Part shown: positions 5,033 to 9,870 of the stretch, piece by piece
Numbering within the stretch: position 1 is the stretch's first letter
Layout: each line of letters starts with the position of its first letter
Assembly: GCA_951406725.2 (NCBI GenBank)
Contig: OX597826.1
Location: 25,606,001 to 25,670,000, forward strand
Length of the DNA: 64,000 nucleotides
Source of the DNA: Octopus vulgaris
Taxonomy: Eukaryota
Direction: 5' to 3'
Made by a program: the position numbers and the translations under genes
The notes under the pieces: model-generated
What the model saw: only the letters and a program-made list of their open reading frames with translations
Told to the model about the DNA's origin: nothing
Database searches by the model: none

Positions 5033-5554
5033 AGTGGTGAAGGAATTGATGGAAACAAACTGAAAGAAAAACAAAGAGAAATGAAGTCACTTTTCTCTTG
5101 AGGAAAGAAAACGAGTAGACAAAAAGCTCATTCACCCGTACAACCGGTGGAATGGGGTGACGAAGTACGAGAGTGAACGAATGAAGATTAAAATAGAAAG
5201 AGAAACAAAGAAAAGTGGAGAGAATGAGAGGAAGGAGAACGAAAAGGCAACATAAAGTTAAAGTGAAGAGGCGGTGGAGTGCGTTGTGTGATAGGGAGTT
5301 TGGTTCCCTGCAACATGATTCCGGGTTCAGTCTCATTGCGTGGCACCTTGCCCAAGTGTTTTCTACAATATAATAAATAATACACACACACACACATACA
5401 TGCATATATGGGTAGATCCCCTTAGCATGCGCAGGCATTGCTGTGTGGTAAAAAAGCTTGCTTCTCATCCACATGGTTACGGGTTCAGTCCCACTGTGTG
5501 ATAAATGTCTTCTACTATAGCTCCGAGCCGACTAAAGCCTTGTGAGTTGGTTTG

Positions 5555-5831
5555 TGTGATAAGTGTGGTGAAAAGGAGCGTAACAGAACAAGGAAAAGAA
5601 TTAGAAGTGTAATTTGGTCTTACCTGTAGAGATGAAGCCGGATTCGCCTTGAGCCAACTTGCTAGCGTCTTGTCGTCTTGGCGTCGTTCTCGAGTCTGCC
5701 TGCCCTGGTCGATGCCGCACGTGCCTTCTGTCGCTGACTTCCGCTTCCGCCGGCGCATGCGCCCTGCGAGACCTGCAAGACCCACTTCCGCTCCCTCCCT
5801 CTCTGTCACACTCCCTCATCACCACACCACA
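5555..5831 (-). repeat. 3' LTR (277 bp)
   Basis: Copy of 9539-9815, preceded on the minus strand by a purine tract. Confidence 0.95.
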
Positions 5832-5841
5832 CGCCCCCCTG
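5832..5841 (-). other. Polypurine tract
   Basis: Minus strand CAGGGGGGCG immediately 5' of the 3' LTR. Confidence 0.75.
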
Positions 5842-5867
5842 ATATATAGATCATTGAACCGGCTTCC

Positions 5868-8780
5868 TCACTCGCTCCCGCACCTGAAACTGGTTTCGTA
5901 GTCAGCCAACCAGGGAGGAGGGTGCCGCTCCCTCTGTGGTCGCAGTGCGACCCTAGGACTTGTTTCTGGCGTGTTGCTGCCGACCTCGTCATCCTGTCTG
6001 TTGTTATCGTCTTGCCCACTGTTGCTTGTCCCATCCTCCGGGGCATGGACAATCCTCCGTATGTCCAAAACGTGGCGTGGCATACCATCTACCGAGATGT
6101 TATTCTTTGAATTTACGGAGGTTATTGTCCCCTTTCCCCATTGCGATGTACACCGTGCGTTCGGGGGTTTCACCCAGACTTCCTCCCCGACCTGCACGAA
6201 GGCGTGCTCTTCCTCTGCCCCGGGTCGCATTGATGTAGTACACGGATGCCTCCACTCGTACCTGAATATTGCCCTGTGTGGCGCCGACTCCTCGGCCTGT
6301 CCTGATCTGGGCGACATGTTGTACCAAAACACGGCCTCGACTGGTGAAATGTGACCCCTCTCAGCCATGGCCTTGATGGTACGATGATGCCTTTCCACCA
6401 CCCCGTTTCCACTTGGCCGGTATGCCGCCCTGAAGAAGCGGTTGACCTTCCACTCATCAAGCATTTCTCTCAGCGCCTCCGAGCGAAATGCAGTGCCGTT
6501 GTCCAGAAGCAGTTCATCCACGGGGCCTCGTTCCAGGAATATCTCGTTCAGCACTTTCACAATTTCTTCTGCGGTTCCTGACCTCATCTCCCTCCATATG
6601 GCGAACCGCCCCGGTCCGCAGTCAACCATTGAGAGGTATGTCCCCTGCCGGTAGTGTGTTATGTCCACCGCCAGTCGTCTCCAGTCCTGGTCCACTGGAA
6701 TACTTCCCGCTTCATGCACGACCGGAGCAGGGTCGATGGACTGGCACCTGTCACAACTGCTAACCACTCTCCGCACGCTCTGTCTTGTTACGTCGGAGTC
6801 GACTTTTCTGGCCAGGAACAACGTCCTGTCCACACCCATGTGATGCATGGTGTGCAGTCTCCGCAACTCCGAGTCGCTCAGATGGCATACTGCAGCTACA
6901 TCCTGCTTCGCGTCCTCTGGCACTTGCAACCAGGCTCGCTTAACCCTGGTCAGGACGTCTGCCCTGTTCTTCTCGGAAGGCACAAAGATCACGCTCAGCT
7001 TCAGATTGAACTCAGTGGTCAGTTCACGCAGTATCCCCAATCGACGCTTTACCAGCATCTCTGCAGCCCCTTTGGTCCGCACCCTCCGCTCATCGGTGAT
7101 GACTGCCGTCGCCCAACCAAGTACAGTGGCTGAATCAGTCCTGATTTCTATGGTGTGCAACCCCCACTTCAAGGCTAGGTTCACCCCCTTCAGCACGGCT
7201 TCCAACTCCGCCACGTTGATGTGACTGCAGTCATCCATCTTCCTGAGCCAGGCTGCATCTTCCACCGTGACACCTCCCACTTCCAAGACAATCCCTATTG
7301 CGATGCTACTGGCGTCACACCATACGATCCCGCTCTTTGATTTGGGAACGTACCAGCTGCCCCTCACCGGGTCCTCTGCTCTTACTCTGACCAGGACTTC
7401 CTGCATCATGTCGATCGTCCTCTCCCCCACTTTATCATTCCACTTCACTCCTTCGGCTCGTCTCTTGATGAAGCTGCATGCTGTCCGGAGCCAGCCTGCA
7501 ATCGGGTAGTGTCCCACCAGCTTCCCACACACAGAGAACAGCTCCCGTCTGCTCATGCTGGCGCCCAGTTCAGGGATCTCATTCCCTCGCCGGAACACCA
7601 AGGCGCCGGCTTTGTCTCTCCATAGCTTGAGGCCCAGTGCAGCACCTCCCTCCATAGCCTCTGGCGGCTTGGCGATCAGTCCAAAACTCTTCAGGTGGCC
7701 TATGACCTCCGTTGCTGGTATCACGGTTTCATCCACCAGAATGTCGTCGATGTATGAATTGGTGGCCCTTTTCACTCTGTCCACCTTCCCCAGGACGGCC
7801 TTGAGAATTGTTGCCATAATCTTCGGAGCTGAATTCAGCCCGAATCCCAACCTGGTCAGACAGTACGTCCGGCCCCTATACCTGACGAGCTGGTACCTCC
7901 ATAGTTTCTCAGCCACATGAACCTGAAGGTATGCCGACTTCAAATCGACAATCGTGGAGGCCCCCGCCGTCTGCCTCCACTCTCGCAAGGTGTCTCCGCA
8001 GACATCCGTGGCCTCGCCGCCTGTATGACACGACACGTGGTCATTCAGCTCTCGGAAGTCGAGCACTGGCCTGACCTTACGCTTTGTGGGCTGTATCACC
8101 GCCATCAGTGGCAGGACTCCGCTCTCTTCTTTTTCCCAGGGGATCAGTATGCCCTCCTTAATCCACCGCTCCACCTCCCCCTCGAACTCACTTCTGGCAT
8201 CTCCTTTTAGAGTATGCTGATAGCAGCCCACTTTGTTCTTTAACATCGGGGGCTCTCCCTTCCAGTCCCACTCCACTGTCCACCTCTCGCCATCAAAGAC
8301 AGCCCGAATATCCTGGTCTTCAATGGTGTGCGCCGCATCCATTTCCTCACGGTTGTCGTCGGTGCGTGGTGTCGCCCTACACGGCTTCCCTGCTAGCCCA
8401 AACGTTACGCCAGCCTCGTTGACGGTAACACCTCCCAGACGGGTGATCGCATCCATCCCCATCACCACGTCGATCTCGTCCACCAAGTGACCGACCACAA
8501 TCGCTCGCAACGTCAGCTGCAGTCCCTGCACCACGATCTGCGCATCCGTAACCCCTTCGCAGTGCACTTCTCTTCCGTCGACTGCCCTGACACTGCTTCC
8601 TCCACTCCACGTCTCTGCCACTTCTGTGGTCATCAGGGTCGTCGTACAGCCCGTGTCCACCAGGGCTCGCGACATCTTCCCCTTCACCAGAATGTCGACC
8701 ACAGGTAACGATGAGAAACGCGCCGCTACTAATCCAAAGGGACAACTACCGGCGCAGTAGTCTCCCGCGGTCCGTTTCCC
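5868..8780 (-). CDS. pol: Pol polyprotein (aspartic protease, RT, RNase H, DDE integrase), probably made as Gag-Pol by -1 frameshift
   Basis: ALVDTGC protease; LDFRELN, DLKSAY, FGLNSAP, YIDD (7743-7754) RT; CDASS, HINVAELEAV, RTDS, NRADVL RNase H; HH..CDRC zinc finger, LAVD, LLDNG, GNGVVER integrase; no internal stops. Confidence 0.95.
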   Translation of the reverse strand, partial: GKRTAGDYCAGSCPFGLVAARFSSLPVVDILVKGKMSRALVDTGCTTTLMTTEVAETWSGGSSVRAVDGREVHCEGVTDAQIVVQGLQLTLRAIVVGHLVDEIDVVMGMDAITRLGGVTVNEAGVTFGLAGKPCRATPRTDDNREEMDAAHTIEDQDIRAVFDGERWTVEWDWKGEPPMLKNKVGCYQHTLKGDARSEFEGEVERWIKEGILIPWEKEESGVLPLMAVIQPTKRKVRPVLDFRELNDHVSCHTGGEATDVCGDTLREWRQTAGASTIVDLKSAYLQVHVAEKLWRYQLVRYRGRTYCLTRLGFGLNSAPKIMATILKAVLGKVDRVKRATNSYIDDILVDETVIPATEVIGHLKSFGLIAKPPEAMEGGAALGLKLWRDKAGALVFRRGNEIPELGASMSRRELFSVCGKLVGHYPIAGWLRTACSFIKRRAEGVKWNDKVGERTIDMMQEVLVRVRAEDPVRGSWYVPKSKSGIVWCDASSIAIGIVLEVGGVTVEDAAWLRKMDDCSHINVAELEAVLKGVNLALKWGLHTIEIRTDSATVLGWATAVITDERRVRTKGAAEMLVKRRLGILRELTTEFNLKLSVIFVPSEKNRADVLTRVKRAWLQVPEDAKQDVAAVCHLSDSELRRLHTMHHMGVDRTLFLARKVDSDVTRQSVRRVVSSCDRCQSIDPAPVVHEAGSIPVDQDWRRLAVDITHYRQGTYLSMVDCGPGRFAIWREMRSGTAEEIVKVLNEIFLERGPVDELLLDNGTAFRSEALREMLDEWKVNRFFRAAYRPSGNGVVERHHRTIKAMAERGHISPVEAVFWYNMSPRSGQAEESAPHRAIFRYEWRHPCTTSMRPGAEEEHAFVQVGEEVWVKPPNARCTSQWGKGTITSVNSKNNISVDGMPRHVLDIRRIVHAPEDGTSNSGQDDNNRQDDEVGSNTPETSPRVALRPQRERHPPPWLADYETSFRCGSE
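8719..8780 (-). promoter_or_regulatory. -1 ribosomal frameshift signal: G_GGA_AAC + 7-nt spacer + H-type pseudoknot
   Basis: Heptamer 8780-8774 in gag frame; pol is -1 relative to gag; stem 1 GGGAGACUAC/GUAGUUGUCCC, loop UGCGCCG pairs with downstream CGGCGCG. Confidence 0.85.
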
Positions 8781-9484
8781 CGCAGACACTCGCTGGCCAC
8801 ATGCCCCGGCTCTCGGCACCGGTAGCAAATCACCTCGGGCTTGGGCGACGCGCAGTCACGGACCATGTGTGGGCCCTGGCACCGGAAACACTGTCCCTTA
8901 AACGACCGCACGCGTTCTTTCCCCAGCCCCTCTCCGTTGCTCCTAGCTGGGCCACTTTTCGACGTTGCAGTCGCTGCTACCGACGTCGACCTGCTGCACG
9001 ACACCAGTACACGTGCCCGCGATATAATCTCGGCCATCGGCATCGAACGCACGTTCGGGAGCTTCTGTAGCTCGACCGACATGATGTCGGGAAAGCCGGT
9101 CACGAACGCTAACCTGACCGTGCGTTCTAGCGACTCTCCCTCATATCCCGCAAGTTTTGCCAACCTTCTAAGCTCGCCGGCGAACACGTCCACCTGCTGT
9201 CCTGTCCACCTCATCCTACCCAGTCGAGTGTACGCTTCGAACATTCCTTCCGCGAAGGCCTCCATAAGTCGGATCTCCACCTTGTCCGCGCTGCGTTGGT
9301 CCGCTTCCTCCATCTCCAGATATAACGCCAACGCCGGGCCATCCAAATACAACGGCATAAAACTAGCCAGGTCAGCTATGCCGTGTAGCTTCGCCACCAA
9401 CTTCACCCTCCTCAACCAAGCGACCACGTCGGTGTCGCCGCAAAACGGTGTTATAGGGTCGCGTGAAATCATAGCAGTCTGCAT
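8729..9484 (-). CDS. gag: Gag, 251 aa, two C-terminal zinc knuckles
   Basis: ATG 54 nt after the 5' LTR; CFRCQGPHMVRDC (CX2CX3HX4C) and CYRCREPGHVASEC (CX2CX4HX4C). Confidence 0.92.
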   Translation of the reverse strand: MQTAMISRDPITPFCGDTDVVAWLRRVKLVAKLHGIADLASFMPLYLDGPALALYLEMEEADQRSADKVEIRLMEAFAEGMFEAYTRLGRMRWTGQQVDVFAGELRRLAKLAGYEGESLERTVRLAFVTGFPDIMSVELQKLPNVRSMPMAEIISRARVLVSCSRSTSVAATATSKSGPARSNGEGLGKERVRSFKGQCFRCQGPHMVRDCASPKPEVICYRCREPGHVASECLRGNGPRETTAPVVVPLD

Positions 9485-9526
9485 AATTTTTATTTTTTAT
9501 TTTCACGAAACCGAGTGATTATTTTC

Positions 9527-9538
9527 GCCGAAATAGCT
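9527..9538 (-). other. Non-canonical primer-binding site complementary to tRNA-Phe nt 1-12
   Basis: Plus strand GCCGAAATAGCT abuts the LTR edge and equals the 5' end of metazoan tRNA-Phe(GAA) (GCCGAAATAGCTCAG..., recalled sequence); no TGG-type PBS present. Confidence 0.8.
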
Positions 9539-9815
9539 TGTGATAAGTGTGGTGAAAAGGAGCGTAACAGAACAAGGAAAAGAATTAGAAGTGTAATTTG
9601 GTCTTACCTGTAGAGATGAAGCCGGATTCGCCTTGAGCCAACTTGCTAGCGTCTTGTCGTCTTGGCGTCGTTCTCGAGTCTGCCTGCCCTGGTCGATGCC
9701 GCACGTGCCTTCTGTCGCTGACTTCCGCTTCCGCCGGCGCATGCGCCCTGCGAGACCTGCAAGACCCACTTCCGCTCCCTCCCTCTCTGTCACACTCCCT
9801 CATCACCACACCACA
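9539..9815 (-). repeat. 5' LTR (277 bp)
   Basis: No difference from 5555-5831 found by eye; lies upstream of gag on the minus strand. Confidence 0.95.
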
Positions 9816-9870
9816 GTTTGGTAAGAATCTCGTTGTGTATATATATGTACATATTTGTGTGTATGTGTGT

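Follow-up and report, generated by a model that had tools for sequence, protein, structure and literature searches.

For the Metaviridae (Ty3/Gypsy), the virus taxonomy committee ICTV gives a primer-binding site of 18 nt that is complementary to the 3' end of a tRNA (PMC7879559). For Tf1, the available sections of PMC7175516 and PMC4600332 describe how RNase H makes the primer by cutting the transcript of the element itself between bases 11 and 12. Half-tRNA priming (Ty5, Drosophila copia, fungal Copia/Helenus) uses a site that pairs with the anticodon loop region and is reported, in the accessible part of PMC10886601, only from Copia lineages; fungal GalEa carries a hairpin in place of a primer site (accessible part of PMC5445492). 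Here, we describe a long terminal repeat (LTR) retrotransposon of Octopus vulgaris whose primer-binding site is the exact complement of nucleotides 1-12, i.e., of the 5' end, of a host tRNA. It occupies positions 5555 to 9815 on the minus strand of a 64,000-nt stretch of DNA (assembly GCA_951406725.2, contig OX597826.1, positions 25,606,001 to 25,670,000), which as a whole is called the window in the following.

If our reading of the site holds, the element would share with Tf1, Tf2 and Tj1 a short primer from an RNA 5' end that is annealed beside the LTR, as well as a cut at a fixed position (available sections of PMC7175516 and PMC4600332). The Tf1 primer, as described there, stems from the element's own transcript, whereas the octopus element matches a host tRNA, in trans, over 12 nt. 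With the half-tRNA group, as covered by the accessible part of PMC10886601, it would have in common that a 3'-truncated tRNA and not the CCA end is used; it differs by pairing with nt 1-12 (acceptor and D stem) and by its domain order, i.e., protease (PR), reverse transcriptase (RT), RNase H (RH) and integrase (IN). The Metaviridae share with it LTRs, a polypurine tract, gag and pol, the PR-RT-RH-IN order, a 5-bp target duplication and a size within the stated range (PMC7879559). They are set apart from it by the 12-nt site matching a tRNA 5' end, by an RT and RNase H outside the Gypsy profiles and by the lack of a GPY/F motif. Since Tf1-group members also break the 3'-end rule, the primer site alone does not exclude the element from this family, and some Gypsy clades likewise lack GPY/F.

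The match to the host tRNA

The sequence AGCTATTTCGGC stands right after the 5' LTR, without a TGG, and the host tRNA-Phe(GAA) begins with its reverse complement (nt 1-12). This unusual site is the main feature of the element and was missed by the original prediction, an earlier annotation made from the letters of the window. A 15-base pattern search of the octopus genome (2.8 Gb, 227 contigs) gave 94 matches compared to 0 for the control, and at 12/12 loci checked ARAGORN calls tRNA-Phe(GAA), with genes that start at the match. The site is the sole complementarity of at least 8 bases between element and tRNA-Phe, such that a Ty3-like second tRNA-binding site was rejected. The 12-bp duplex reaches -18.7 kcal/mol, while the acceptor stem is at -8.8 kcal/mol.

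The 12-mer is exact in 19/20 close copies as well as in 14/16 further loci, including subfamilies at 66-74% Pol identity whose leaders diverge from the next base on. The LTR end followed by the 12-mer occurs 279 times in the genome versus 3 times for the reversed control, and 77 of the 85 such sites that were fetched continue into gag. No description of a primer site for tRNA nt 1-12 was found in the full-text literature (subscription journals, Repbase Reports and GyDB were outside the search).

We consider it probable that a 12-nt 5' tRNA fragment serves as primer of the minus-strand DNA. It would be possible, though improbable, that the site instead serves packaging or dimerisation, by binding the tRNA 5' end or a protein, or acts as an A-box-like signal at the DNA level, and that priming is done otherwise. 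All evidence for priming is indirect and comes from sequence, which suits this alternative, and the TAGCT part of the site presumably shares bases with the first part of the Pol III A box. On the other hand, the site adjoins the LTR exactly where minus-strand synthesis must begin, and no 3'-CCA primer site follows the 5' LTR. The longest self-complement of the site within the element has 6 bases, with none in the LTR, and self-priming of the Tf1/sushi type was rejected on these grounds. Furthermore, the acceptor-stem bases 1-7, which the match covers, lie outside the A box, and nt 13-19, which belong to the A box, lie beyond the end of the match. The site cannot pair with the tRNA 3' strand, whose sense it shares.

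Three further observations concern the tRNAs and the site's surroundings. In a tandem tRNA-Phe-like array of the host genome (C18:30147732-30157146), the tRNA-Phe start is matched about 45 times at intervals of 200 bp. Host tRNA-Met(CAT) genes starting with GCCTCGGTAGCG (L291, L295-L298; C2, C5, C8) are interrupted behind the anticodon by an intron of about 21-22 nt; tRNA-Met introns are unusual in animals. In one subfamily (L302, L318, L344), the end of the primer site and the next bases, GCCCATAAC, are complementary to the U3 start GTTATGGGC, which we take to be a possible 5'-3' RNA pairing like that of Ty1 CYC5/CYC3.

Element structure

The features of the element in window coordinates are as follows.

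5555..9815, minus strand: whole LTR element, 4,261 bp
9816..9820, no strand: target-site duplication (TSD) on the element's 5' side, same 5 bases as 5550-5554
9539..9815, minus strand: 5' LTR, 277 bp, TG...CA ends, identical to the 3' LTR
9527..9538, minus strand: primer-binding site AGCTATTTCGGC, adjoining the 5' LTR, exact complement of host tRNA-Phe(GAA) nt 1-12
8729..9484, minus strand: gag, 251 aa, with a capsid-like region of helices and with two zinc knuckles (CX2CX3HX4C, CX2CX4HX4C)
8774..8780, minus strand: slippery heptamer G GGA AAC in the gag frame, hairpin downstream (-28.2 kcal/mol), predicted -1 frameshift into pol
5868..8855, minus strand: pol open frame, 995 codons, overlaps gag, -1 relative to gag
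8439..8699, minus strand: aspartic protease (LVDTG), profile match and motif
7587..8243, minus strand: reverse transcriptase fingers and palm (DLKSAY, FGLNSAP, YIDD), profile match and model
7374..7553, minus strand: DUF7047 (PF23088), E 5.6e-24, three helices between RT palm and RNase H
6936..7334, minus strand: RNase H, catalytic residues D, E, D, D, without His loop, match to RVT_3/RNase_H and not to the Gypsy profiles
6051..6875, minus strand: integrase with HHCC and D,D(35)E, its C-terminal domain rich in beta strands and lacking GPY/F
5832..5840, minus strand: polypurine tract AGGGGGGCG, adjoining the 3' LTR, kept in copies and subfamilies
5555..5831, minus strand: 3' LTR, 277 bp, identical to the 5' LTR
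5550..5554, no strand: TSD on the element's 3' side, insertion within a very high-copy repeat resembling a short interspersed nuclear element (SINE)

The compact 4.26-kb element named in the original prediction is thus real, with identical 277-bp LTRs and a 5-bp TSD. The leader measures 54 nt from the 5' LTR to the first ATG, which starts gag, and the pol stop codon lies 36 nt short of the 3' LTR. Stop codons are absent from the gag and pol frames, and the hallmarks of an LTR retrotransposon are present, i.e., direct LTRs with TG...CA ends, the 5-bp duplication and the polypurine tract. The element is GC-rich as had been claimed (56.6% compared to 37.3% in the rest of the window) but not specially CpG-rich (observed/expected 0.90 versus 0.82). 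Its host site (window 5307-5554 and 9816-9833) is a decayed copy of the SINE-like repeat, which the element interrupts. In contigs from four sequencing runs, the element and its left flank are covered along with a few bases of the right flank; among the contigs listed, none spans the site.

For gag, we found matches to Retrotrans_gag-like clusters, which serve as a lead only; the single-sequence structure model of gag was unusable (pLDDT 44). The Pol model (pLDDT 72.6, pTM 0.47) places the DUF7047 helices at residues 436-447, 454-466 and 478-494, and according to this model DUF7047 is likely the RT thumb. Foldseek relates the Pol model to retroviral and caulimoviral proteins at 10-19% identity only. 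The best RT-RH fits are caulimoviral (8r0s, root-mean-square deviation 4.9), which indicates that the element has no tether and does not identify its nearest family.

Site variation among relatives

To the octopus copies we can add 76 loci of metagenome relatives with 29-55% identity in the best segment, among which a gag start is present in 46 and absent in 30. The strict form of the site, A|AGCTA-NNNN-GGC within 300 nt upstream of gag, occurs in 39/46 loci compared to 3/476 control windows; two of the seven loci missed had fewer than 12 bases upstream. With a relaxed form, 44 sites were found. These share the window's letters with frequencies of 0.89-1.0 at ten of the twelve positions, a profile that is independent only in part since nine of the twelve positions are fixed by the search pattern. 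At the two positions facing tRNA nt 5-6 the sharing is 0.27, and at the first base past the site it is 0.16.

The variants follow different tRNA starts. The host-type Phe start is present in 11 sites, while 10 and 9 sites equal two other starts, both carried by tRNA-Phe(GAA) genes; a tRNA-Phe call was obtained in 53/55 loci with the latter two starts, most of them from archaea and all retrieved with a pattern that included a Phe-like continuation. The site of L152 equals nt 1-12 of tRNA-Lys(CTT) (6/6 such loci), and the site of L156 equals nt 1-12 of tRNA-Met(CAT), including a change at nt 12 beside the LTR (gene call in 5/8 loci). Altogether, 32/44 sites match a tRNA 5' end, and the pairing register is constant.

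Next to the G-rich polypurine tract, a GATC just upstream is kept in 14/76 metagenome loci and in host-genome copies, while the window's copy reads TATC.

A candidate priming route

For the use of the site, we propose the following course of events. The element's RNA would be translated to Gag and, via a -1 frameshift at G GGA AAC, to Gag-Pol. This frameshift is predicted from the sequence; the heptamer is kept in 5/5 copies, each from a different subfamily. (Some relatives, e.g., P0099 and P0120, have Gag and Pol in one frame, i.e., the frameshift is not universal in the lineage.) Within the particle, the primer site would then invade tRNA-Phe at its acceptor stem and at the 5' strand of its D stem; energetically, the 12-bp duplex outweighs the acceptor stem. 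The tRNA would be cut between nt 12 and 13, where the pairing ends at the LTR edge, such that a 3'-OH is placed next to the LTR. The primer's 3' end is put at tRNA nt 12 because only such an end would be extendable where minus-strand synthesis must start. Plus-strand strong-stop synthesis, in running off the primer's 5' end, would regenerate exactly 12 bases per cycle. Such a run-off would explain both that conservation ends sharply at tRNA nt 1 and that the site tracks the host tRNA. Finally, the DDE integrase would insert the cDNA with a 5-bp duplication.

As to the cutter, a little over half of the probability that we assign to the tRNA primer goes to the element's own RNase H. We prefer it because the RNase H of Tf1 cuts its own RNA between bases 11 and 12 to the same end, as described in the available sections of PMC7175516 and PMC4600332. 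The chief competitor, which we rate as rather unlikely, is a host-made primer, i.e., the capture of a ready-made 5' tRNA fragment of tRF-5 type whose unpaired tail is trimmed to nt 12. All evidence for the 5'-end match fits this equally well, and no mature tRNA would have to be unfolded. Fragments of the tRF-5 type are mostly 14-16 nt long and cut in the D loop. An extra trimming step is required, and the pairing ends at nt 12 in every matched Phe, Lys and Met variant, which would suit one ruler encoded by the element better.

Several observations weigh against the proposed route. Among the relatives' sites, 12/44 have no match among the tRNAs checked; for the three GCCGGGATAGCT sites no tRNA gene was found in the search, and for GCCCGGATAGCT the one host locus checked is not a tRNA gene. 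The sites covary with tRNA 5' ends that occur in one organism or another and not with those of each metagenome host, and the tRNA-Phe matches of the variant starts are mostly archaeal and were found with a Phe-like continuation in the search. The motif was defined post hoc and its relaxed form is common by chance (122/476 control windows). In addition, there are near-duplicates among the 46 loci, and 30/76 loci lack a gag start. Only 1/8 rearranged octopus sites, which are treated below, breaks at nt 12. Taken for itself, the case for primer, cut and cutter is one made from sequence comparison.

Rearranged insertions

Rearrangements are present in 8/85 fetched sites. In the solo product L349/L384, an inverted segment starts from tRNA nt 1 and reaches 136 bases into the LTR; it lies between the LTR and the 5-bp duplication. 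This structure would fit, if weakly, the run-off from a 12-nt primer. L299 and L350 continue into the leader, L317 has an internal deletion and L356 an insertion; L380 and L382 are also among the eight, and none but L349 breaks at nt 12. L347 was considered as a strong-stop product and rejected, since it continues into 7 bases of the normal leader.

As observations in their own right, L299, L350 and L349/L384 (C1, C3) are inverted-LTR products with 5-bp duplications, with U3 at both ends in L299 and L350; they are apparently aberrant cDNAs that were inserted by integrase. L347 and L380 are minimal inserts that consist of one LTR, the primer site and 13 bases ending with ACACCACA, each with a 5-bp duplication.

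Affiliation of the lineage

The RT and RNase H motifs quoted in the original prediction were all found in Pol, and so was the Gypsy-like domain order PR-RT-RH-IN. This order is common to Gypsy, BEL and Troyka and hence not diagnostic. The RT-RH link, said to be short, is hardly distinctive: the first aspartate of RNase H follows YxDD at a distance of 144 residues, and in the four Gypsy controls that carry Y/FxDD this distance is 147-151.

We scanned 22 Pol proteins of the family (the window's Pol and 21 distant members) with Pfam and found DUF7047 in all of them. The Gypsy RNase H profiles PF17917 and PF17919 are present in 0/22 family proteins, while 4/4 Gypsy controls carry both, and RVT_1 scores are weak or absent in the family (best E 1.6e-11), while 4/4 controls reach E 1e-25 or better on RVT_1, PF17917 and PF17919. 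GPY/F was found in 0/105 integrase tails and Y/FxDD in 120/120 homologues. On RT, the window's protein is 14-21% identical to Gypsy and 22% identical to BEL.

In our trees, 14-23 members of the element's family were set beside five Gypsy families, one or two broken copies of BEL and outgroups of non-LTR type; every outgroup was taken from the octopus genome itself. In the RT tree, the five Gypsy families group without the element's family (support 98/97, or 92/89 once ten rows are dropped), and after dropping these rows the family is placed on the BEL side (82/94). The RNase H tree groups the family with BEL (99/91), a grouping that collapsed when five rows including the longest branch were dropped. 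With this thin sampling, approximately unbiased (AU) tests left a nesting within Gypsy unrejected, with p-values of 0.078-0.135 on RT and 0.369 on RNase H. That is, the claim of a distinct lineage stands with regard to profiles, best trees and an own primer site, while a separation from Gypsy is not enforced by the AU tests. The sequences suggest a deep, distinct lineage, be it inside or beside Gypsy.

Possibly, we are dealing with a fast-evolving clade within Ty3/Gypsy (Metaviridae) that mollusc or annelid surveys may already have numbered (MolGy, PolGy, LGF). Domain order, TG...CA ends, 5-bp duplication, missing tether and the CX2CX4HX4C knuckle all fit Gypsy. In the AU tests, neither a grouping with each of three Gypsy subgroups on RT (p-values 0.122, 0.135 and 0.078) nor a grouping with all five Gypsy families on RNase H was rejected, and the RNase H tree fell apart with the removal of one long branch. 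The surveys, in their accessible parts, list families without comparable sequences (PMC6238403, PMC8556966, PMC8220671); none of the three signature motifs of the lineage is present in the readable parts of the PMC6238403 supplements. This placement is at odds with the 22/22 family proteins that miss the Gypsy RNase H profiles and have a weak or absent RVT_1, with an RT identity to Gypsy that is like the one to BEL, with the RT trees, in which the Gypsy families group among themselves, and with the 105/105 integrase tails without GPY/F. Furthermore, within the accessible part of the PMC11673190 supplement LGFGL occurs in 0/418 reference RTs, and RPVLD occurs only in DIRS-1.

For BEL/Pao (Belpaoviridae), domain order and 5-bp duplication are shared, and by eye the element's RT motifs are like those of Cer7. 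In contrast, Peptidase_A17 (PF05380) is found in 0/22 family proteins but in two host BEL remnants with E 1e-34 or better, and in the octopus element, which is much more compact, gag and pol are separate. The tree grouping with BEL is unstable and based on two broken BEL copies with long branches.

The tyrosine-recombinase elements of DIRS type had been named as a resemblance. By eye, RPVLD, K.AYL.V.V and FGL..AP.I are shared with DIRS_AAA70202.1 from the accessible part of the PMC11673190 supplement. The RT motifs, also judged by eye, resemble BEL as much as DIRS-1, and the element differs from DIRS by its protease, DDE integrase, direct LTRs and target duplication and by the lack of a tyrosine recombinase. 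The RNase H motif HIN.LE is presumably a further DIRS resemblance. Beside the tyrosine-recombinase frames (DUF3504 type) of the octopus genome we found no RT. Two open frames of 583 and 546 codons (L188:2556-4304, L189:2621-4258) contain DUF3504 and a tyrosine-recombinase domain; we assume these to be Crypton-like.

Troyka, which had also been suggested for comparison, shares with the element that it is an LTR lineage of aquatic animals outside canonical Gypsy, without env, tether or GPY/F. Membership is excluded by the ends, the duplication length, the YxDD motif and the zinc knuckle: Troyka/Kuafuorterviruses have CG...CG ends, a 3-bp TSD, I/V/LADD and CX2CX8-10HX4C (PMC12440569 and the accessible part of PMC11673190) versus TG...CA, 5 bp, YIDD and CX2CX4HX4C in the element.

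Beyond the octopus, a search with the RT-RH region gave 835 proteins at E <=0.001 among 7,987 candidates, the best 120 of which are 57-73% identical. Named hosts are Argonauta, Oratosquilla, Petrolisthes, Aplysia, Plakobranchus, Sycon and Nymphon, i.e., relatives occur in a sponge, in arthropods and in molluscs. The lineage comprises 508 protein clusters (50%-identity representatives) at E <=1e-30. When longer homologues were looked for, the search gave one fused gene model and one deep member, P0296, which is only 24% identical; a search starting from P0296 returned only P0296 itself. Among the top Atlas clusters, three members have a known phylum, with Euglenozoa the commonest, which is a lead only. 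The viral contigs searched contain no relative of the element and no match to the tRNA pattern. In the full-text literature, no account of the lineage or of DUF7047 was found (the search did not extend to subscription journals, Repbase Reports, GyDB or the Figshare data on Troyka). As a side observation, the Nymphon striatum model P0295, labelled as eIF-2-alpha kinase GCN2 (2,466 aa), contains the lineage's Pol and is probably a merged gene model.

A further-reaching reading, which we rate as slightly less likely than not, is a family-level lineage separate from Gypsy, BEL, Copia and Troyka that is marked by DUF7047 and ranges from sponges to arthropods and molluscs (perhaps protists). Its RNase H would cut a mature host tRNA after nt 12 and use the 5' piece as primer, with switches between tRNA-Phe, tRNA-Lys and tRNA-Met in the same register.

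Residence in the octopus genome

The DNA search for copies scored 31 of 791 candidates and listed 34 matches, among which at least 27 are near-full copies (at least 4,100 of 4,261 bases, 90-100% identity). In the 20 copies fetched, a 5-bp target duplication is present in 19 (16 distinct sites, since two and three loci share flanks), and the pol frame is open over at least 974 codons in 15. A DUF7047 profile search of the genome gave at least 150 loci (150 scored of 522 candidates). In 35 comparisons with the window's pol, close copies have dS values of 0.003-0.06, an older layer lies at 0.08-0.17 and sister subfamilies at 1.3-3.3. All 35 comparisons gave a dN/dS below 1, with 0.06-0.21 in the older layers. 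Duplications, open frames and dN/dS bear out the earlier description of an intact, probably active element. Among the sequencing runs listed as containing it, none is on record as RNA.

A recent invasion is not borne out. Horizontal transfer would be suggested by the young age of the copy (0 LTR mismatches), by the closest database proteins (70-73% identity over RT-RH), which come without a host name and may stem from a donor, and by the spread of the lineage over distant marine phyla. We nevertheless judge a recent entry into the host to be quite improbable. The dS values are graded from 0.003 to 0.17, with sister subfamilies beyond 1.2 in the same genome, and the many DUF7047 loci likewise speak against it. 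Among named relatives, the one nearest in the RT tree stems from another octopod, Argonauta hians (97/95), and over half of the sampled words occur in sequencing runs of three organisms. GC richness, which had been read as a sign of transfer, fails as such: each of the ten family frames checked has a GC content of 54-57%, and so has one of the five Gypsy families. The family is long resident in the genome and, going by the sequences, still active.

Implications

The compact, intact element itself is ordinary, while the lineage-wide match to tRNA nt 1-12 is the surprise. The priming modes we found described use a tRNA 3' end, a tRNA half cut near the anticodon, or self-priming, and a site for nt 1-12 would add another. 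If true, an RNase H cut of Tf1 type would be joined with a host tRNA. The lineage is perhaps unnamed because Gypsy RNase H profiles and searches for 3'-end primer sites miss it. Its primer-site motif can be read in raw DNA as a tag of the lineage and could give a hint of which tRNA the host has, and DUF7047 gains a likely role as RT thumb. If the proposed route is true, the retroelement would be specialised in cutting tRNA and would supply short 5' tRNA fragments.

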